Positions 7,528 to 20,078 are shown, counted from the stretch's first letter. The stretch is 52,378 bases of DNA from Candidatus Nanoarchaeia archaeon (GCA_028715295.1 JAQUSD010000003.1:1-52378), one strand, 5' to 3'. The notes: generated by a model from the letters alone, not told the origin. Translations and numbers: made by a program.

Positions 7528-8008
7528 TGAAATTAAGTCTGTAATTGAAAATCTCAGAAATATTGATACTTCACTTAAACTAGTTGCAGAAGGGAGTTTA
7601 CATATTACTCTTGCATTTCTCGGAGAAATCTCAGAGTCTCAGAAAGATGAGATTTTGCAGTTATTAAACGAAATCAACCACAACACCCTTTTTCAGGCAG
7701 AAATGAAAGGTTTGGAAGCAATAAGTCCTCAGTTTTTAAGAGTAATCTCTGTAGCTATAAATTCAGAAGAACTTGAAAAAACAAGAACAGAACTCGTTGA
7801 AAAGTTAAATAATTTAAAAATTAAAGCAGATAGTCATCCAGCACATTTAACATTAGCAAGAACGAGAACGCAGTTAAAGAAAAAAGAACTATTGCAATAT
7901 ATCAACGACAACAGGAACAAGTCATTCGGAACATTTCAGATAAGTAAATTAAGTTTAAAGAAATCAACATTAACACCTAAAGGCGCAATATACAAAGATT
8001 TGAATTAA
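7490..8008 (+). CDS. thpR: RNA 2',3'-cyclic phosphodiesterase (2H phosphoesterase)
   Basis: MRAFIAVD, HITLAFLG, HLTLAR, STLTPKGAIY. Start at ATG 7490; overlaps the MazG gene by 38 nt. Confidence 0.92.
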   Translation: MRAFIAVDVPVNNEIKSVIENLRNIDTSLKLVAEGSLHITLAFLGEISESQKDEILQLLNEINHNTLFQAEMKGLEAISPQFLRVISVAINSEELEKTRTELVEKLNNLKIKADSHPAHLTLARTRTQLKKKELLQYINDNRNKSFGTFQISKLSLKKSTLTPKGAIYKDLN

Positions 8009-11713: not shown

Positions 11714-12178
11714 CTAATTTAGAGCAGTACAGAAGGATGAGCCAGCAACACTTCCTGGAAGAGTAATTTCCATTGAATATGTCCTACCATGTTCTAAATT
11801 AGCTGCTGTTGTGAAGTTGTATTGATATAAGGCTGAAACGGAAAGTTCAGGCCAGCTTGTTTCAATAACAGAATCCAGAACTTCTCCGCCCCTTTTTATT
11901 ACAATTACTGCATTTCCAGCGAGAATTCTTGAGTTTCCATCATTAAAAAATGTAAGCTCTACACCCTCTGATGTTGAATTGCATTCTGCTTTTAGAACAC
12001 TAAATCTCGAGCCAGTCTGCCTCTCTAAGTCAGTAATATCCCCTTCTGCTCCTCCACGGCCTCTTTCACTCAATGAAGATATCCATATAAAAGCTGTGCC
12101 AGCAAGAGCAATTGTTATCATAAGCATAAGTATTATGCTTACAATAGGAGTTACTCCCTTTTTAGAGAATTCGATCAT
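11714..12178 (-). CDS. Archaeal type IV pilin-like protein (class III signal peptide)
   Basis: SKKG|VTPIVSIILMLMITIALAG prepilin cleavage motif plus hydrophobic helix. Start ATG 12178 or 12217. Confidence 0.88.
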   Translation of the reverse strand: MIEFSKKGVTPIVSIILMLMITIALAGTAFIWISSLSERGRGGAEGDITDLERQTGSRFSVLKAECNSTSEGVELTFFNDGNSRILAGNAVIVIKRGGEVLDSVIETSWPELSVSALYQYNFTTAANLEHGRTYSMEITLPGSVAGSSFCTALN

Positions 12179-12256
12179 ACAGCTGTAAAGGACTTTTTTA
12201 TTTATAACTGTTTCCATAGGTTAAATTATTAAGTTAATCTGCTTAAGTAAGATATA

Positions 12257-14257
12257 ATGAAAAAAGGAGAAATGTCATCTTTAGATTTAATGGCTGTAAT
12301 AAATGAAATTAAAGAACTGCTTACAGGAGCAAAGCTCCAAAAGGTATATCAGTCTGAAAAAGGAGAATTTTATTTTTACTTTTATAAACAAAGAGAATAT
12401 GTTCTGCATATAATATCAGGAGAGATGATGCATTTAACCAATTATAAAAAAGAATTCCCGCAAGTACCCCCACATTTTTGCATGTTCTTAAGAAAATATC
12501 TAAAAAACGCAGTCCTTTTGAAAATAGTCCAGCCAAAATCCCAAAGAATTGCTGAACTTCATTTTAAGACCTCTAATGAAGAACCATACATCTTAATTTT
12601 TGAACTTTTTTCAAAAGGCAACATAGTTTTATGCGATTCTAATCACATAATAATACAACCTTTGTTATTCCAGAAATGGGCAAGCAGAACAATAAAGCCA
12701 AAGGAAAAATATATTTACCCTCCAACCACAACGCCTGATTTAAGAAGTCTTGACGAAGCAAAATTCATAGAACTTATGTCAAAATCAGAGAAAGCAGACG
12801 CAGTGCGTTTTTTAGCAATAGATATTGGGTTGGGAGGTGTTTATTCTGAATTTATTCTTTCAATTTCAGGAATTGACAAGTATGAATTACCAGATAAAAT
12901 TAACAAAAAAACAGCTTCAAAGCTTTACAATGAACTTATGAAACTTGTTGTAAAAATCGCAACAGGAGATACTGAACCAAACATAATACACTCAAATGGG
13001 TTGCCGTTGTTCGCATCACCAGTTTATCTTGGAAAAACAAATTTAACCGAGTTTAATTCATTTAATGATGCAGTAGACGAATTTTTTGCAAAAGATGAAA
13101 AAACAAAAGAAAATCTAGAAAAAACAAAAAAAACCAATTTAAGGGTAAACGAGTATGTTAAGAGATATGAAGAACAGAAAAAAACCGTTGAAGAATACGA
13201 AAAAAAATCAAAAGTGATGAAATCAGAAGCCGAACTTCTCATGAGAAACAAGTTTGTAATCCAGAATATAATAAGCAAGATACTTTCTTCAAGAAAAAGC
13301 GGATATTCATGGGAAGATATATTACTTAGAGTAAAACAGGAAAAAGAAGCGGGTGTTGATGAAGCCCAAATTATTAAACTAATTGAACCCCATCTCGGGA
13401 AAATAATTATTGATGTTGAAGGAAAAGACCATGAATTTGATTTGCACGATGATGTTGGGTATGTAATAAATGAAAAGTATGAAGATTCTAAAAAATTAGA
13501 AGCAAAAGTTGAAGGGGCCAAATCAGCAATGCTTGAAACTAAAACAAAAATAGAACAGATAAAAAAAGAAGAAGAATCTTCTCCAGTAAAAGAATCTTCG
13601 CTTAAAAAAATAGAGAAAAAAACACCAGCAAGATGGTATGAAAATTATAGGTGGTTTATTTCAACAGACAATTATTTGGTAGTTTCAGGAAAAGATGCTT
13701 CACAAAACGAAATTTTAATAAGAAAATATATGGAATTAAATGATAAAGTGTTCCATGCGGACATCCACGGTTCCCCATTTACAATTGTGAAATCAAAAGA
13801 AAAAAAAATACCTGAAAATACCCTAAAAGAAGCAGCAATACAGACTGCCTCTTATTCAAAAGCGTGGAAAGAGGGGCTAGGAAATGTTGATGTTTATTGC
13901 GTTGAGCCCATACAGGTTAAAAAAAGTGGACCTTCAGGGGAGTATCTTGCAAGAGGCTCTTTTATGATACATGGCAAGAAAAATTATTTTAATAATACTG
14001 TGCTTGAAATAGCTGTTGGTGTACTTATAAAAGACAGCAAATACCAGATTATCTCAGGTCCTTATGAAGCTATAAAAAAACATTCAAGATATTTTGTCAG
14101 GCTTTCTCCTGGACAACAAGACGCTAAAATCCTTGGTTCTGAGGTTTTAACTAAATTAAAGCTTAAGGTTTATGGGAATGATGCGGGCGTCTTAGAGATG
14201 ATTAAGCCTTCTGATATAGAGCCGTTTATTCCAGGAGGCTCAAGATTATTATCCTGA
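12257..14257 (+). CDS. rqcH: NFACT-family ribosome quality control protein (RqcH/Rqc2)
   Basis: SSLDL, FCMFLRKYL, ELFSKGNIVL, long coiled coil, WYENYRWF, GKDASQNE, FHADIHGSP, GEYLARGSFMIHG. Confidence 0.93.
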   Translation: MKKGEMSSLDLMAVINEIKELLTGAKLQKVYQSEKGEFYFYFYKQREYVLHIISGEMMHLTNYKKEFPQVPPHFCMFLRKYLKNAVLLKIVQPKSQRIAELHFKTSNEEPYILIFELFSKGNIVLCDSNHIIIQPLLFQKWASRTIKPKEKYIYPPTTTPDLRSLDEAKFIELMSKSEKADAVRFLAIDIGLGGVYSEFILSISGIDKYELPDKINKKTASKLYNELMKLVVKIATGDTEPNIIHSNGLPLFASPVYLGKTNLTEFNSFNDAVDEFFAKDEKTKENLEKTKKTNLRVNEYVKRYEEQKKTVEEYEKKSKVMKSEAELLMRNKFVIQNIISKILSSRKSGYSWEDILLRVKQEKEAGVDEAQIIKLIEPHLGKIIIDVEGKDHEFDLHDDVGYVINEKYEDSKKLEAKVEGAKSAMLETKTKIEQIKKEEESSPVKESSLKKIEKKTPARWYENYRWFISTDNYLVVSGKDASQNEILIRKYMELNDKVFHADIHGSPFTIVKSKEKKIPENTLKEAAIQTASYSKAWKEGLGNVDVYCVEPIQVKKSGPSGEYLARGSFMIHGKKNYFNNTVLEIAVGVLIKDSKYQIISGPYEAIKKHSRYFVRLSPGQQDAKILGSEVLTKLKLKVYGNDAGVLEMIKPSDIEPFIPGGSRLLS

Positions 14258-14355
14258 AAGTCTCAAAGTCTCACTAAAATTTGAGACTTTTGAGACTTTG
14301 ATAAAAAGAAAGTCTCAAAGTCTCACTAAAATTTGAGACTTTTGAGACTTTGATA
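14256..14355. repeat. Two identical 48-bp units (period 52 bp), each an imperfect palindrome of four AGTCTCA/TGAGACT motifs
   Basis: GAAAGTCTCAAAGTCTCACTAAAATTTGAGACTTTTGAGACTTTGATA at 14256-14303 and 14308-14355, separated by AAAA. Confidence 0.98.
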
Positions 14356-14363
14356 CCTTACAA

Positions 14364-14380
14364 CAGAAAGCAATATATAT
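14364..14380 (+). promoter_or_regulatory. Putative BRE/TATA promoter of the wHTH gene
   Basis: CAGAAAG-C-AATATATAT ending 22 nt before ATG 14402. Confidence 0.6.
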
Positions 14381-14401
14381 CCTTGATTCATTTATTTTTT
14401 T

Positions 14402-14887
14402 ATGAGTTATGAAGAAGCTGAAGAACAAAAACAAAAAAAGACTGAGATACACCTACACCAAAGTGATTTAGGAAGCCTTTTCTCGCACATATCAAAACAA
14501 CTAAGTCTTATGGATGAAAAGCAAAAAATGCTAATGGAAGGCCAGATAAATATGATTGAACATCAAATAATGACTATTTCTGCGCTTAAAAAACACGACG
14601 AAAAGATAAATACAAACGTTTCAAATGTCAATAAAAATGTTTTATCTGGGTTTGAAGCCTTGGAAAACCTTTCAAATCTTAAAAACAAAGTTGAAAAAGA
14701 ATTTAAGAGCGAATTGGGTAAGCAAATGCTTGAGATTTTAAATCAAAAAAAAGAAATGACAACCTCTGAAATAATTGAAGCCTTTAAAAAATATGCTTCA
14801 AGAGCAACAATATTCAGAACTTTAAGCGAATTAACAGAAAGAAACCTTGTGGAAAGAGTTCACGGAAAGATTTTAATCAAAAATTGA
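14402..14887 (+). CDS. Coiled-coil + C-terminal winged helix-turn-helix DNA-binding protein
   Basis: Helical heptad-like residues ~25-100; C-terminus MLEILNQKKEMTTSEIIEAFKKYASRATIFRTLSELTERNLVERVHGKILI fits the wHTH pattern. Confidence 0.8.
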   Translation: MSYEEAEEQKQKKTEIHLHQSDLGSLFSHISKQLSLMDEKQKMLMEGQINMIEHQIMTISALKKHDEKINTNVSNVNKNVLSGFEALENLSNLKNKVEKEFKSELGKQMLEILNQKKEMTTSEIIEAFKKYASRATIFRTLSELTERNLVERVHGKILIKN

Positions 14888-15327
14888 ACACACATAATGA
14901 TAAAAATAGACATTTTGAAATTTCTACAAACGAAAAATATAATTAATAGTTCACCCAAAAAATAAATCATATCTTTGAAAAATCATAATTAAAACATTTA
15001 ATTTTAAAAATATCTGCCCCAAAATAAAATCATGAATAATATCCCACTAAAATTAAAATTTATTTATTGGATATATTAAAAATAAAATAAAATATTTTTT
15101 TCATAATTATTCAGAATAAAACCATAATTTAATTGATAATAATGATTTTAAACACACCGCATAAGTTTTTTAAATAAAAATAAATAATCCAGTTAAAAAA
15201 TAATAAACTTTTAAAAGAAGAATATCAAAATATTTTATTATTTGAGTTTGATGGACAAAGAAAAAACATAAAAGTAATAATCACTATTACCTAAGAACGA
15301 CTTTTAAAATTTTTAAATTAAATTTAA
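14888..15327. other. 440-bp extremely AT-rich non-coding tract between convergent genes (candidate DNA-unwinding element)
   Basis: Hand count 73 G+C in 440 nt (~17%); 31-nt pure A/T run at 15071-15101; no ORF in the supplied track. Confidence 0.7.
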
Positions 15328-18015
15328 TTAATTTTTCCAAAATTCCCTCGTCCTCAAATAATTTTTCTCTCTCCTAATTATCTCTTTAATCAATTCGTCT
15401 TCATTTTCATAATCTCTGCATAGAATTCTATAAGCATTTGTCGCCCCAACACCCACACCAGCAAAAATTAAACAGGTTTTTTTGCCGTGTGATAAATATA
15501 AATGTGCTTTTTTTTCTAAATCTTTAGCTATTTTGATATCTTCACCAATAATTTTTTTATTTTTTACGATTTTTTTAACTATTTTTTCAAAATCTTTATA
15601 TTCAGGGAAGAAGGTTATCAATCCCGAATCACATTTTATACAGTTTATCTTATCTTTTGCAGAAATATAAGTATTTTTTCCAAGGTATTGTCCACATTTT
15701 ATACAATAAAACCTAAACACTTTATTTTTTAATCGGTTTTTTACATGTTCTACCACTTCCTTGTAAGCATTTTCAGGGTTTACAAATTCATTTAAATGGA
15801 ATTTTAATGAAAATTCACCAAATGGAGAGACATTACCATCATTTCTTTCAACCTTTATCAGCTTTTTCCTAATTTTTTCAAGTATTTTCTCAGAATTTTC
15901 AATATCCATATGCTTTTTTATTTCTTCATTGAAGCTTTCTTCATAAACTATGCTGTCTTTATAAATTTCTATCAGCTTTTTCACAATCCTCTTATTGATT
16001 TCAGCATTTTTTTTCAATACCCCGCAACGTTTTGCAACATTTACAAAAGTCCAGTTAAAATTTGAATTGTTTTTTAGAGACAGCTTCAAAATCTCTTTAA
16101 GCCACCCTTCACCTATGTTTAAAAGTGAGGCATTAATAGCATCAAAATTTCTGTCAGGGAGTCTGATTACAGCGCCGTAAGCATCAGATTTCAAAGCGAT
16201 AGAAATTCCGTATTTTGATGATAGAAGTGCTGTAAGAGCTGTATAGAGCGTTTTGTTGATTTTAGTTCCAAAAGATGAATGGACTACTAAATATTCCCCA
16301 TTTATCTCTAAAAAAATTCTATCAACGGAGTGAAGGAAATATTTTTTTTGTCTATCAATGAACTCGTCTTTAATTTTGCTTCTTAATTCATCTGCTGTTT
16401 TTGCTATCAAATATGGAACAGGAATATTTTCTCCATCCCACACAGGAATATTATTGCTTGTTGCACCAATTCTTATTACAAATATCCTATCTCCATCAAG
16501 CTTTGTGACTCTCCAAGGCTCCCCTCTACATACAAACTGCTTTCCAAGTTCAATATTCTCTGCTACAAACTCTTCGTCTAAAACACCTATTTTTGAGTTA
16601 TTCTGCTCATTTATAACAAAATATGTTTTTATTGAGGGAATCATGCTTAAATTGTCATAATAATACAACATGCCTTTTCTTGTTTTGCCAATAACATCCC
16701 CAAATTCTCCAATTAGATTAACCTGTTTCATGAAATCAAGAATTTTCCTAAATTCTTCTTTAGACAAATTCCTATAAACATGAGATTTTTTTACTGAGTT
16801 ATAAACAAACTCTATTTTTGGGTCTCTGAAATCCATACAATATCCTACAATCCCATGGATAAGCACATCATACGGCTTTTCAATAATCTCAAGAGTCTCA
16901 AGATTTTTGAGATTTTGGACAATTGAAACAGCTTCAAGGTAATCATGCGTATTGGTTGTTAATAAAATCCCTTTTGAAACCCTGTCTTTTGAATGTCCTG
17001 AACGTCCAACCCTTTGAATCAAACGCGTAACTTCTCTTGGTGAAGTAAACTGGACAACAGTTTCTATATCTCCCACATCAATACCTAATTCCATAGAAGA
17101 AGTGCAGACTATTGCTTTAATTTCTCCTTTTCTAAACCCGTCTTCTGTTGAAAGCCTACTCTCTTTACTCAGGCTTGAATGATGAACTTCTACTTTTTCA
17201 TTTATCCTTTTGAGTTTTGAACCTAAAAGCTCAGCAGTCTGCCTTGTATTTACAAATACAAGGGTTGATTTTGAGCAGTTTATTATTTCATTTATCTTTC
17301 TAACAGCCCACGCAACTTCTTTACCAACCCCTTGTTTTTCAGCATATTCTAAATCCTCTCCTTCAGGATTTGCTTTAAGAACTTCAATGTCATACTTCTT
17401 GTCAGCATCAAGTCTTACAGTCTCACAGTTTTGAGACAAATAATCCCTTACACCGGAAATATTGCTCACAGTTGCTGAAAGCCCTATTTTCTGGAAGTTT
17501 GGAGATAAAAGTCTCAATCTTTCCAATCCAATGCTTAATTGGGCCCCTCTTTTATCCCCAGCCAATTCGTGAATTTCATCTATAATAACATACTTCAGCT
17601 TTTTCAGATGTTCTCTAAGCCGTTTTCCAATCAATAATGCCTGTACAGTTTCAGGAGTTGTAATCATTATTGAGGGAGGATTTTTACTTTGTTTAACTCT
17701 CTCGCTTTGTTTTGTATCCCCATGCCTGACATCAATTTTAATACCCAATTTTACTCCCCATTGAACAATCCTGTCAAATATGTCTCTGTTGAGAGCTTTA
17801 AGTGGAGTAATATAAAGGCATTTTATACCTTCTTCCTTATCATTTATTAAGTCATTAAACACCCCAATCATACTGGCTTGTGTTTTTCCATAACCTGTCG
17901 GAGCAGTGATAAGAACATCCTTCCCTTCATGGACATGTTTAAATGAGACTTTCTGGTACTCAAATAAGTCCCCATATTCTTCTCCAATTATTTCTGTGAT
18001 TTTAGGATGTAACAT
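15328..18015 (-). CDS. lhr: Lhr-core ATP-dependent DEAH/DEIH helicase
   Basis: APTGYGKT, DEIH, GLSAT, HHSSLS, CTSSMELGID, QRVGRSGH; C-terminal CxxC...CxxC. Confidence 0.95.
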   Translation of the reverse strand: MLHPKITEIIGEEYGDLFEYQKVSFKHVHEGKDVLITAPTGYGKTQASMIGVFNDLINDKEEGIKCLYITPLKALNRDIFDRIVQWGVKLGIKIDVRHGDTKQSERVKQSKNPPSIMITTPETVQALLIGKRLREHLKKLKYVIIDEIHELAGDKRGAQLSIGLERLRLLSPNFQKIGLSATVSNISGVRDYLSQNCETVRLDADKKYDIEVLKANPEGEDLEYAEKQGVGKEVAWAVRKINEIINCSKSTLVFVNTRQTAELLGSKLKRINEKVEVHHSSLSKESRLSTEDGFRKGEIKAIVCTSSMELGIDVGDIETVVQFTSPREVTRLIQRVGRSGHSKDRVSKGILLTTNTHDYLEAVSIVQNLKNLETLEIIEKPYDVLIHGIVGYCMDFRDPKIEFVYNSVKKSHVYRNLSKEEFRKILDFMKQVNLIGEFGDVIGKTRKGMLYYYDNLSMIPSIKTYFVINEQNNSKIGVLDEEFVAENIELGKQFVCRGEPWRVTKLDGDRIFVIRIGATSNNIPVWDGENIPVPYLIAKTADELRSKIKDEFIDRQKKYFLHSVDRIFLEINGEYLVVHSSFGTKINKTLYTALTALLSSKYGISIALKSDAYGAVIRLPDRNFDAINASLLNIGEGWLKEILKLSLKNNSNFNWTFVNVAKRCGVLKKNAEINKRIVKKLIEIYKDSIVYEESFNEEIKKHMDIENSEKILEKIRKKLIKVERNDGNVSPFGEFSLKFHLNEFVNPENAYKEVVEHVKNRLKNKVFRFYCIKCGQYLGKNTYISAKDKINCIKCDSGLITFFPEYKDFEKIVKKIVKNKKIIGEDIKIAKDLEKKAHLYLSHGKKTCLIFAGVGVGATNAYRILCRDYENEDELIKEIIRREKNYLRTREFWKN

Positions 18016-18113
18016 AAGTTGTTTTAGATATATGCCTTTATTTATAAAGGTTATCCAAAATAAAAACCTCCAAAAACCTAATCTTTTTATTCAGCCAAGC
18101 TGAATAATATGTT

Positions 18114-19394
18114 ATGGAATATGATGAGGTTTTTAAAAGAGTTCTGAAAGAGATTAATCCAAAACAATCAGAGATAAAAAAAGCAAACCAGGTTAGCATA
18201 GAACTTAAAAAAATTCTTGAAAAATCCGCAAAAGAACTTAAGATTGATTGTGAGATTTTTCTTGGCGGTTCAATTGCAAAGGGAACCTGGCTTTCAGGAA
18301 AGCACGATATCGACTTTTTCATACGCCTTAACTCAAAATACAATGATTTATCACAATACGCAGGTATGGTGATTTCCAATGCATTATCAACCAAAAATTC
18401 AAAATTCATTATTTCAAAAGTCCATGGCTCAAGAGATTATTATAAGATGGATTACAGGGGTTTTGAAGTTGAATTTGTTCCTGTACTCAAAATCTCAAAA
18501 GTCTCAGACTTTTTAAATATAACAGACGCCTCGCCCTTCCATGTTAAATATGTTCAGAAAGAACTAAAAAAGAACCCTAAACTAAAAGAAGAAATACTTC
18601 TGCTCAAGCAGTTTTCAAAAGCAAACGGCTTTTATGGGGCTGAAACATGGATTTCCGGTTTTTCAGGTTATGTTACAGAACTTTTGATACTCCATTACGG
18701 TTCTTTTTTTAATCTTCTTAAATCAGCATTAGGATGGAAGGGAAAGATTTACATTGATACAAAGAAGTATTACAAAAGTCTTGGAGAAGCTATTAAGAAG
18801 CTGGACAAGTCAAAAACACGAGGGCCTTTAGTTTTAATTGATCCCGTACAAAAAGAAAGAAATGCAGGAGCGAGCATAAATCAAAAAGCACTTGATAAAT
18901 TCATAAACTCAGCTGAAAAATTCCTTGAAAAACCTTTGGAAAACATGTTCAAAAAGGAAAAGATAACAATAAAAGACTTAGAAAAAACAGCAGAAAGCAA
19001 TAACCATGAGCTGATATATTTAGTTTATAAAATTAAAAGCAAAGCAAAAAAAGATGTTTTCTTTGCAAAAATGCAGAGAAATTTAAGAAAATTCAGCGCA
19101 TTTATTGAAAAAGAGAATGTAAAAGTGTATAACAAAGGAATTCTGCCGTCTGAAACTAACCTTTATTTGTGGCTTGAAACAGAAAAAATAACCTCTCTTA
19201 AACCTTATGTTCAGATTGGGCCTTCAGAAACCCGCAAAGATGCGGTCAAAAACTTTAATTTAAAATGGAAAAACCATCCAAGAACAATCAAGGGACCGTA
19301 TATTAAAGACGGAAAAGTCTGCTTTGATGTAAAACCAAGATATAGAATCTTAGACACCTTAATAAAAGAAGCAAAAAAATTCTCTAATTTATAA
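18114..19394 (+). CDS. cca: CCA-adding enzyme, archaeal class I
   Basis: GSIAKGTWLSGKHDIDFF, SPFH, YGAE, GFSGYVTELL, LIDPVQKERNA. Confidence 0.96.
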   Translation: MEYDEVFKRVLKEINPKQSEIKKANQVSIELKKILEKSAKELKIDCEIFLGGSIAKGTWLSGKHDIDFFIRLNSKYNDLSQYAGMVISNALSTKNSKFIISKVHGSRDYYKMDYRGFEVEFVPVLKISKVSDFLNITDASPFHVKYVQKELKKNPKLKEEILLLKQFSKANGFYGAETWISGFSGYVTELLILHYGSFFNLLKSALGWKGKIYIDTKKYYKSLGEAIKKLDKSKTRGPLVLIDPVQKERNAGASINQKALDKFINSAEKFLEKPLENMFKKEKITIKDLEKTAESNNHELIYLVYKIKSKAKKDVFFAKMQRNLRKFSAFIEKENVKVYNKGILPSETNLYLWLETEKITSLKPYVQIGPSETRKDAVKNFNLKWKNHPRTIKGPYIKDGKVCFDVKPRYRILDTLIKEAKKFSNL

Positions 19395-20078
19395 TTAAAG
19401 CATTTTAGTTAAGTCAAGAAGCAGAACCTCTTTAATATCTACGTGCTTCATAAACTTTTCAGTTGATTCTCCCGCCCCCCCAACAAGTTCATTGAATGCT
19501 GGGACAAGAATAATCTTCTTCTTTACACCATGAAACTCGCACTCACCAATAAACCACGCTTTATTTGGGGTTATTGATTCAACCCGGTCCCTTAACTTGT
19601 ATTCCGGGTGCACATGTCCAGCAATTATAATCTTCACTTTACTCATCATTTCCTTGCTTGGGAATGCATGTCCATGTATAAATCCAAAGCCACCCAGAGC
19701 CTGCTCCTTGATTATTTTAACTTTGACTTTTTCTTTCCTTGCTAAGTCTTCAAGCCCGGCATCATGGTTGCCTCTTACAATAATTATTTCTTTGAAAACG
19801 CTTGAAAGCTTTTCAATGAAAAAGGGGATTTCATTCTGCTCCTGCCAGCTTATCAAGGGTATGCTGTGTTTAAAGTCTCCAAGTATCATGAGACTTTGAG
19901 ACTTTGTTCTTTTACCTATTTTAATGAGTTTTTCAAGCATTTTAGAGGTTTGAGACACAACCGTTATGCCTCTACGTCTTAATTCTTTCTCAACACCAAT
20001 ATGCATGTCAGCAACAATAAGGGTTTTTCCTATACAAAAGGAAGCAGTATTTTTGTTAAATCTTACCTTCATAATCAT
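19395..20078 (-). CDS. Metallophosphoesterase, COG1407-like (Lhr-associated MPE type)
   Basis: ADMHIG, LGDFKH, GNHD, HGH, GHVHP, PAFN. Confidence 0.9.
   Translation of the reverse strand: MIMKVRFNKNTASFCIGKTLIVADMHIGVEKELRRRGITVVSQTSKMLEKLIKIGKRTKSQSLMILGDFKHSIPLISWQEQNEIPFFIEKLSSVFKEIIIVRGNHDAGLEDLARKEKVKVKIIKEQALGGFGFIHGHAFPSKEMMSKVKIIIAGHVHPEYKLRDRVESITPNKAWFIGECEFHGVKKKIILVPAFNELVGGAGESTEKFMKHVDIKEVLLLDLTKML

Follow-up and report, generated by a model that had tools for sequence, protein, structure and literature searches.

Several families of DNA-binding proteins are known to read arrays of short, closely spaced sites. The alpha protein of phage P4 binds, through its winged-helix domain, the octamer iterons in the ori and crr regions, and the rep-ori modules of staphylococcal pathogenicity islands (SaPI) are of a similar kind. 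The heptad arrays of the omega protein of pSM19035, which serve both as operator and as centromere, and the met-box arrays of MetJ consist of tandem 7-8-bp subsites in mixed orientations that are read by ribbon-helix-helix (RHH) dimers. Extra replication origins of archaea are thought to derive from captured elements. In Sulfolobales, SegB, an RHH protein that is paired with the ParA-like SegA, recognizes the motif TCTAGA-S-TCTAGA and has strong palindromic sites upstream of segAB, with ~83% of its other sites being intragenic (bioRxiv 10.1101/2025.02.07.637068). Here we describe a palindromic array at positions 14256-14355 of a 52,378-nt stretch of DNA from Candidatus Nanoarchaeia archaeon (GCA_028715295.1, JAQUSD010000003.1:1-52378; hereinafter, the window), located directly upstream of a gene (14402-14887, + strand) that codes for an orphan protein with a winged helix-turn-helix (wHTH) domain. 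Tentatively, and short of calling it probable, we read this array as a lineage-specific cooperative binding platform of the iteron/operator type, which would offer eight sites to the adjacent orphan protein.

The array is built of two perfect 48-nt units that recur with a period of 52 bp. Unit 1 (14256-14303) reads G-AAAGTCTCA-AAGTCTCA-CTAAAATT-TGAGACTTT-TGAGACTTT-GATA; unit 2 (14308-14355) is 100% identical to it according to both Tandem Repeats Finder (TRF) and a separate repeat search, and an AAAA spacer (14304-14307) lies in between; none of these features is assigned to a strand. TRF, applied to the window, returned 14256-14355 with a period of 52, 1.9 copies, 100% matches and a score of 200, and the other search found the same pair of 48-nt copies. 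Each unit holds two direct and two inverted octamer/nonamer motifs of the AAGTCTCA type. The underlying 7-mer AGTCTCA/TGAGACT occurs 8 times in the array and 16 times in the whole window, against 4.5 ± 2.2 expected, a count that was reached in none of 100 shuffles. Folded as single-stranded DNA, one unit forms a stem of 17 bp that is interrupted by one bulge and closed by an 8-nt loop (-13.8 kcal/mol, z = -5.5), the entire array, folded as RNA, yields -45.4 kcal/mol (z = -7.4), and a hairpin scan uncovered a third palindrome with 11-bp arms, TTTGAGACTTT-gataaaaag-AAAGTCTCAAA (14289-14319), which bridges the junction between the units. These results bear out the description given in the first-pass annotation, namely, two 48-bp units with eight motifs, two direct ones facing two inverted ones, and a 17-bp hairpin per unit whose stem has one bulge and whose loop spans 8 nt. 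The further claim of that annotation, that both units present the same face of the DNA, holds for the 52-bp period of the units only: inside a unit, the centres of the motifs are 8, 15 and 9 bp apart, so that neighbouring motifs do not share a face of the helix.

Indirect support for the duplication comes from an independently built assembly. In the Logan assembly (k = 31) of run SRR22315506, which possibly is also the source of the genome assembly and in which the locus carries at least one single-nucleotide polymorphism, one contig stops at 14285, with the last 31-mer that belongs exclusively to the left context of unit 1, and a second contig begins at 14326 with a 31-mer whose final base is the first that only the right context of unit 2 has. 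The two breaks correspond to an in-branch and an out-branch of the de Bruijn graph and, therefore, to a tandem repeat of at least two copies, since a single copy would give no branch. This indirect evidence fits a real duplication, with two copies at least. The perfect identity of the units suggests that it probably arose by recent slippage of a single ancestral palindrome. Five other perfect tandem repeats of 40-61 bp, in 2.2-3.7 copies, were found in the same genome (C24:12671-12826, C34:12035-12123, C10:11710-11887, C30:21120-21307 and C17:1-136, where C numbers denote contigs); three of them are at contig ends, whereas the other two are internal, their starts falling within the last codons or the stop codon of a gene. 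Among the contig-end repeats, one begins in what by eye is an apparent, unconfirmed, tRNA gene 3' end, and one includes the start codon of a gene. This set of repeats suggests either frequent slippage or minisatellites in this archaeon or a weakness of the assembly. A further repeat, C11:10927-11333, with six 69-bp units (77-81% identical) located 3' of a 594-codon open reading frame (ORF), was rejected as a clustered regularly interspaced short palindromic repeat (CRISPR) array because its "spacers" are alike, which points to a degenerate minisatellite; the array under study was rejected as a CRISPR as well, its 48-nt units being only 4 nt (AAAA) apart, without unique spacers.

The position of the array relative to the flanking genes is well defined. 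The upstream gene is rqcH (12257-14257, + strand; Pfam NFACT_N, 1.6e-50, and NFACT-R_1, 2.2e-36), a member of the NFACT family involved in ribosome quality control, which was also in the ORF list; the last two bases of its stop codon TGA (14255-14257) are also the first two of the array. The promoter profile that was derived from 361 upstream regions of this genome consists of an A-rich TFIIB recognition element (BRE) at -37 to -33 and a TATA box at -31 to -24 from the ATG, a spacing from which it follows that most transcripts of the genome are leaderless. Judging from the profile fit and the sequence, the predicted promoter of the wHTH gene comprises a BRE (AGAAA, -37 to -33) and a TATA box (cAATATATa, -31 to -23) at 14365-14379 (+ strand). 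The array, accordingly, occupies -146 to -47 of a predicted leaderless promoter, ending 46 nt before the ATG and 9-10 bp before the BRE. Both borders agree with the first-pass annotation, which had the array start in the rqcH stop codon and end 9 bp before the BRE. Symmetric sites next to the promoter of a presumed regulator's own gene are what an autoregulatory operator would offer. On the far side of rqcH and divergent from it, a 167-codon ORF (11714-12217, - strand) carries the N-terminal signal of archaellins and type IV pilins (TIGR02537, 1.3e-9; weak matches to UpsA and UpsB).

The candidate binder of the array, the 161-aa product of 14402-14887, matches Pfam HTH_DeoR above the cut-off (1.3e-7) and shows sub-threshold NCBIfam matches to GlpR, Sta1 and Lrs14. 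Its layout combines a long N-terminal helix (residues 3-115) with a C-terminal wHTH (residues ~103-156). The single-sequence AlphaFold2 model predicts one helix of 113 residues (3-115) with pLDDT, the per-residue confidence, of ~90 and leaves the C-terminus unresolved (predicted template-modelling score, pTM, 0.39). This predicted DNA-binding protein, whose gene adjoins the array, is unrelated in sequence to ParB, SegB and AspA. No homologues were found in 60 genomes of the same class, in 5.8 billion clustered proteins (word-indexed search), in 1.84 billion representatives (exhaustive HMMER search) or among PDB sequences.

Beyond the array, five or six degenerate copies that follow its motif grammar are scattered over the neighbouring genes. 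The double motif, with up to 2 mismatches allowed, has 6 further sites in the genome, and 5 of these lie between 7.6 and 19.9 kb of the window, within 7 kb of the array; 30 composition-matched control patterns gave 0-1 match per genome (~0.2 on average). The multi-motif satellites are located in a LigT-like gene (7626-7655, AAATCTCA-GAGTCTCA-gaaaga-TGAGATTT), twice in lhr (16885-16914, AATCTCA-ag-AGTCTCA-agatttt-TGAGATT, recognized by eye; and 17410-17438, AAGTCTTA-CAGTCTCA-cagttt-TGAGACAA, at an indel in a poorly conserved position of the protein), in the gene for the CCA-adding enzyme (18490-18511, AAATCTCA-AAAGTCTCA, followed by an overlapping inverted half-site AGACTTT) and in a metallophosphoesterase gene (19873-19904, AAGTCTCc-AAGTaTCA|TGAGACTT-TGAGACTT), the latter being a near-perfect, loop-less copy of the whole unit in which one arm is an exact 16-mer. 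The lhr gene (15328-18015, - strand; large helicase-related protein; Pfam DEAD, Helicase_C, WH_Lhr, DEAD_assoc) contains, in addition to its two multi-motif satellites, single motifs at 17510 and 17944. All satellites are in coding DNA, in differing reading frames and at poorly conserved residues, and the orthologous 11 kb of relatives contain 0-1 exact motif. Even with the array masked, no other 12 kb of the genome is as rich in the motif as this zone (8 exact 7-mers, 0.54 expected), and, when 1,156 7-mers of similar abundance served as an empirical null, only the 7-mer of the array reached 9 loci in 12.3 kb. Five multi-motif satellites that cluster in coding DNA between 7.6 and 19.9 kb agree with the zonal clustering of sites, many of them intragenic, at centromeres of the ParABS/SegAB type. 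The Pfam scans of ORFs of at least 100 codons between 0.8 and 28 kb (with the 103-codon ORF at 1358-1669 left out) turned up no ParA/SegA/MinD-type protein, Orc1, Rep, integrase or transposase. Outside this contig, an exact double motif occurs just once (C29:3460-3475, TGAGACTTTGAGACTT); it has no inverted partner and, by our own reading, is inside an apparent coiled-coil-like coding sequence.

The window is contig C2 of a 777-kb genome (42 contigs, ~94% complete, 33% G+C). The nearest relatives in the species collection are labelled only as "same class", and the best RqcH homologues, with no more than 43% identity, are assigned to Woesearchaeota or Nanoarchaeota, which identifies the organism as a DPANN-type archaeon. 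In a genome-wide scan, with ~6% of the genome unassembled, the array cluster was unique, no second palindromic cluster was found, and the 7-mer itself was of median abundance; uniqueness combined with median abundance argues against a dispersed selfish repeat. Nor was the exact architecture of the array found in collections of genome contigs and metagenome contigs or in related genomes. The gene order rqcH(+), variable slot, lhr(-), cca(+) is kept in L012 and L015, the two nearest relatives, whose RqcH is 43% identical (compared over 12257-19394). In the relatives, the slot contains YjbQ, a histone-fold protein, a cupin or an iron-sulfur assembly protein, and no palindromes, and their small ORFs are unrelated to the orphan protein; in the window, it is taken up by the array, the orphan gene and a non-coding gap of 440 bp (14888-15327, no Rfam match), towards which the wHTH gene and lhr converge. 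The array and the orphan gene are both lineage-specific and share one variable slot. Similar arrays beside homologues of the 14402-14887 gene, to which the first-pass annotation had looked as a check, did not materialize, as related genomes have neither the gene nor the array. A third member of the RqcH cluster at 90% identity (P0109, 57 aa, on L009, that is, ENA contig k141_5071491) proved to be an unrelated sequence and a spurious cluster member and was rejected as an independent copy of the locus. The 440-bp gap, which ranks 4th in length among the 134 convergent gaps of the genome (median 0 bp), holds the most AT-rich 300-bp window of the genome (14951-15250, 15.7% G+C, rank 1 of 15,311 windows). 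As to the neighbourhood on its far side, lhr and the small metallophosphoesterase gene (15328-20078 together) are separated by cca and an orphan 123-codon ORF, an arrangement that recalls the bacterial lhr-mpe pairing.

Palindromes with the same core are found in bacteria. The relaxed pattern GTCTCA-NN-GTCTCA-N0-16-TGAGAC-N2-3-TGAGAC has 24 fixed bases, for which, by our rough estimate, less than one chance match is expected; it was found in at least 120 contigs from metagenomes, in 61 from genomes, which represent many bacterial phyla plus one metagenome-assembled genome of Methanofollis, and in 5 viral contigs, whereas the matches to viral contigs numbered 0, 1 and 0 for three control hexamers of the same composition. 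The members of this family (L016-L201; L numbers denote loci) have 2-9 direct GTCTCA octamers facing an equal number of inverted ones, with 3-9 per arm at many sites (for example, L040:3003-3278, L150:2161-2681, L136:2880-3010 and L045:1250-1320). Among 169 distinct sites, neighbouring direct copies share the flanking base in 67% and 54% of cases, which indicates that the unit is a true octamer. The arms in L039, L041, L045, L061 and L139 are identical to those in the window. At 30 loci, the palindrome touches a gene for an AAA_25 RepA-like protein, as a rule at a position of 1.01-1.08 relative to the length of the ORF; a number of the proteins are fused to a primase-polymerase (prim-pol)/PriCT_2 or DnaB-N domain, and they end in an HTH or a TrmB-like wHTH. 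In the ~4.2-kb unit that is tandemly repeated in L040, a single patch of 270 nt at the 3' end of rep holds 18 of the 20 hexamers. Elsewhere in the family, the palindrome is found close to tyrosine integrases or downstream of ordinary genes, and it is multi-copy in Enhydrobacter aerosaccus, Reyranella, Asaia and Acidobacteria. Neither Rfam nor the open literature yielded an entry for these palindromes, the literature search with the repeat sequences having brought up nothing but human PRDX1 oligonucleotides. In the analysis of neighbouring genes, "cluster 2" was rejected as an antisense shadow of Rep genes in high-GC DNA.

How might such a platform work? The coiled coil of the orphan protein could make dimers or higher oligomers, each winged helix would read one AAGTCTCA octamer, and two direct plus two inverted motifs, present twice, would allow cooperative loading of four to eight subunits. 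With the array at -146 to -47 of the orphan gene's own promoter, the complex would at least feed back on its own transcription, and the same complex at the rqcH 3' end could block read-through. The satellites and the AT-rich tract further suggest that a nucleoprotein domain resembling a centromere or an origin may form locally, with the strong site as its nucleus, much as SegB, ParB and omega have strong sites beside their own genes in addition to weaker intragenic ones. The first-pass annotation had proposed an iteron- or centromere-like array for a dimeric protein: the geometry, the uniqueness, the position at a promoter, the satellites and the Rep-linked octamers speak for this proposal, which is supported in part; no ParA/SegA partner turned up for a centromere, and no Orc1 or Rep for an origin. 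A bolder reading, which we regard as unlikely, is that the array, the orphan gene, the AT-rich tract and the one-sided halo of motifs together form an undescribed DPANN cis-element, be it a second, Orc1-independent origin or a ParA-less centromere-like centre, with a grammar in common with the putative origins of RepA/prim-pol mobile elements from many bacterial phyla; if so, GTCTCA-octamer palindromes would be an undescribed, cross-domain class of iterons.

Several observations weigh against the array being a binding platform for its neighbour. The candidate binder is an orphan without homologues, whose binding we only infer. Adjacent sites do not share a face of the helix, which is unusual for winged-helix dimers, and tandem subsites of 7-9 bp are more often seen with RHH proteins. 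Within the bacterial family, the hexamer is found with more than one type of DNA-binding domain, HTH_7/HTH_23-like as well as TrmB-like wHTH; the adjacent domain, therefore, may not be its reader, or the hexamer may act as a structure. When the array is left out of the clustering count (7 loci), 5 of the 1,155 other 7-mers match it, so that clustering amounts to p ~0.005 only. Finally, other perfect tandem repeats also start at stop codons and recent slippage seems to be common in this genome; hence neither the duplication nor the 52-bp spacing need be functional.

Alternatively, the array could act as RNA, with the hairpins in the 3' untranslated region (UTR) of rqcH serving as a 3'-end stabilizer, as a pause or termination aid, or as an insulator from the downstream gene. 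We consider this improbable, even though the start of the array within the stop codon suits it, as does the start of some bacterial palindromes in the last codons of a gene (L136). The first run of at least five T after rqcH begins 137 nt past the stop, just before the ATG of the orphan gene, compared with a genome median of 40 nt; the sequence that contains this run, TTTATTTTTTT (14391-14401, + strand), is a candidate archaeal terminator for rqcH read-through. Since it comes after the array, the array probably is transcribed as the 3' UTR of rqcH. The 60 nt that follow the stop fold at -21.9 kcal/mol, rank 3 among 794 gene ends, where the genome mean is -5.7 kcal/mol. The same analysis of the 794 gene ends shows, however, that hairpin terminators are not the rule in this genome and that stable 3' hairpins are exceptional; moreover, archaeal termination requires oligo-T and not hairpins, and each hairpin of the array is followed only by TTT, unlike an intrinsic terminator. 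A few bacterial palindromes are followed by T-runs (L045, L061), but a run of at least four T adjoins only 14 of 179 sites of the family, most of which, therefore, are not canonical intrinsic terminators. A role as RNA would also leave unexplained the octamer sub-structure, the exclusive pairing with an orphan wHTH gene and the intragenic satellites. A tRNA scan of the window was negative, and Rfam gave no match in it at gathering thresholds, only sub-threshold ones to generic hairpins (plant microRNA precursor models, E <= 1), on which grounds a known RNA family was rejected.

The array could also be a selfish or neutral GTCTCA palindrome, akin to repetitive extragenic palindromic (REP) sequences or miniature inverted-repeat transposable elements (MITE), that was acquired horizontally, duplicated by slippage and has no function in the host. 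The family is, indeed, multi-copy in several bacteria and often found near integrases, the perfect identity of the units implies a very recent duplication, and the assembly contains the other 40-61-bp perfect repeats, two of which start at stop codons. Nevertheless, this scenario has only a small chance of being correct: the array is confined to one locus of the genome and missing from every related archaeon, the window has no transposase or integrase, and the satellites, which are in frame within housekeeping genes, cannot be insertions and yet are statistically linked to the position of the array. A dispersed repeat of the REP/MITE type in the strict sense was rejected, given the single intergenic locus and the median abundance of the 7-mer.

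The AT-rich tract and the Rep-linked relatives of the array raise the question of a non-canonical or captured origin, in which an extrachromosomal element, lodged in the variable slot that separates rqcH from lhr, would have brought along the iterons, an origin-binding wHTH protein and an AT-rich element. With its eight octamer/nonamer motifs over 100 bp, the array follows the design of the Rep-associated loci, and the tract, ~600 bp away from the array with a gene in between, has the composition of an unwinding element, being richer in AT than the canonical origin, which ranks 4th (20.7% G+C). It is in keeping with this explanation that the iterons and the wHTH gene share their locus with the most AT-rich 300 bp of the genome, that the same palindromes lie directly 3' of RepA-type (AAA_25, with or without prim-pol) genes at the 30 loci and are concentrated at the rep 3' end of L040, that the content of the slot varies among relatives, and that phage P4 has octamer iterons read by a winged-helix domain and captured elements are the presumed source of extra origins in archaea. 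However, the 161-aa neighbour carries neither an ATPase nor a primase domain, no Orc1, MCM loader, primase, Rep or integrase is found nearby, and a tblastn search of the genome with 8 bacterial Rep proteins retrieved nothing but noise at the level of the P-loop. Furthermore, the genome has a classical origin elsewhere: at C25:19877-20331, four direct and one inverted origin recognition box (ORB)-type repeats (CCCCTTGATTTCCAGTGGAAC; core TTTCCAnTGGAA) lie in a 455-bp AT-rich gap upstream of orc1/cdc6, which contains the only Cdc6_C match of the genome (C25:21220-21498; none in the window) and is followed by a 520-codon ORF. A genome of 0.78 Mb needs only one origin, and the genes around the AT-rich tract converge on it. 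The skew at fourfold sites does not change sign at 15 kb, but the test is uninformative because it missed the canonical origin, too. Taken together, these points make a captured origin quite improbable, and an Orc1/ORB origin was rejected outright, since the five ORB repeats and the only orc1 gene are on C25 and AAGTCTCA is unrelated to them in sequence.

A small-RNA precursor is very unlikely. Its arms, which are complementary to the satellites in up to 16 of 16 positions, would pair with the mRNAs of lhr, cca, the phosphoesterase and ligT and thereby co-regulate genes of nucleic-acid repair and quality control; the functional relatedness of the hosts (LigT, Lhr, CCA-adding enzyme, metallophosphoesterase) and the probable transcription of the array would fit, but the arms are held in very stable intramolecular stems, no Rfam family matches, and an RNA acting in trans would not need its targets within 7 kb. 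That the duplication is an assembly artefact, with a single palindrome in reality, is suggested by the three perfect tandem repeats at contig ends of the same assembly but is extremely improbable, because the k = 31 assembly breaks precisely where two copies require it to and the 100-bp array is short enough for single Illumina reads to span.

Almost nothing is known about chromosome organization, replication, segregation or the targeting of orphan regulators in DPANN archaea, most of which are uncultured and have genomes of less than 1 Mb. The locus offers a testable pair, one orphan DNA-binding protein and one eight-site candidate target, with graded weaker sites nearby. If the binding platform is real, it would be a first cis/trans module for such an organism and would provide a test of whether satellites around a nucleation site are a wider archaeal principle. 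The GTCTCA palindrome, on its part, is a candidate signature of origins or iterons that could help in annotating the replication modules of uncharacterized mobile elements.

The comparison with the known systems can now be made feature by feature. Like the archaeal oriC with its ORB or mini-ORB sites, the array has dyad repeats near a very AT-rich tract, but the ORB repeats of this genome, of the CCCCTTGATTTCCAGTGGAAC type, are on C25 and unrelated to the array, which has no orc1/cdc6 in its vicinity. The likeness to REP sequences, bacterial interspersed mosaic elements (BIME) and MITEs consists in an imperfect palindrome that is placed in tandem just after a stop codon, and in the multi-copy state of the bacterial GTCTCA palindromes; the array differs in being confined to a single locus, in lacking a REP-associated tyrosine transposase (RAYT) or any other transposase, and in having satellites that are in-frame coding sequence. 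The operators of archaeal wHTH regulators (Lrs14, Sta1, TrmB and Lrp-type) are similarly palindromic and upstream of their own BRE/TATA, and the orphan protein has the weak Sta1-, Lrs14- and GlpR-like matches; however, eight motifs over 100 bp are far above a simple operator, and the array is wholly upstream of the BRE rather than over the TATA box or the start, and is accompanied by intragenic satellites. Contiguous 8-9-bp subsites, direct and inverted, that would be read cooperatively are shared with the omega and MetJ arrays, whereas the neighbour of the array is a winged-helix protein, and the organism and the sequences are unrelated.

Closer resemblance is seen to iteron origins and to partition sites. 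The array shares with the former 8-9-bp direct and inverted units beside a wHTH gene and a nearby AT-rich tract, and with the 30 Rep-associated GTCTCA loci the identical core and the identical layout of two direct plus two inverted motifs; unlike those, its neighbour has no helicase, primase or Rep domain and the genome no Rep homologue, it precedes the wHTH gene instead of following rep, and its host is an archaeon with an Orc1/ORB origin elsewhere. As with SegB and ParB-parS, the strong sites are upstream of the gene for the putative binder and the weaker ones are mostly in coding DNA, whereas the wHTH neighbour is an orphan, the motif is another one, ParA/SegA is missing from the zone, and the satellites are confined to ~12 kb. 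Each known family thus fails in at least one defining feature, so that the resemblance is one of mechanism and not of family. By analogy, the nearest documented counterpart is SegB, as far as strong sites by the gene combined with intragenic sites are concerned, and the alpha protein of phage P4 with ori/crr, with regard to octamer iterons that would be read by a winged helix.

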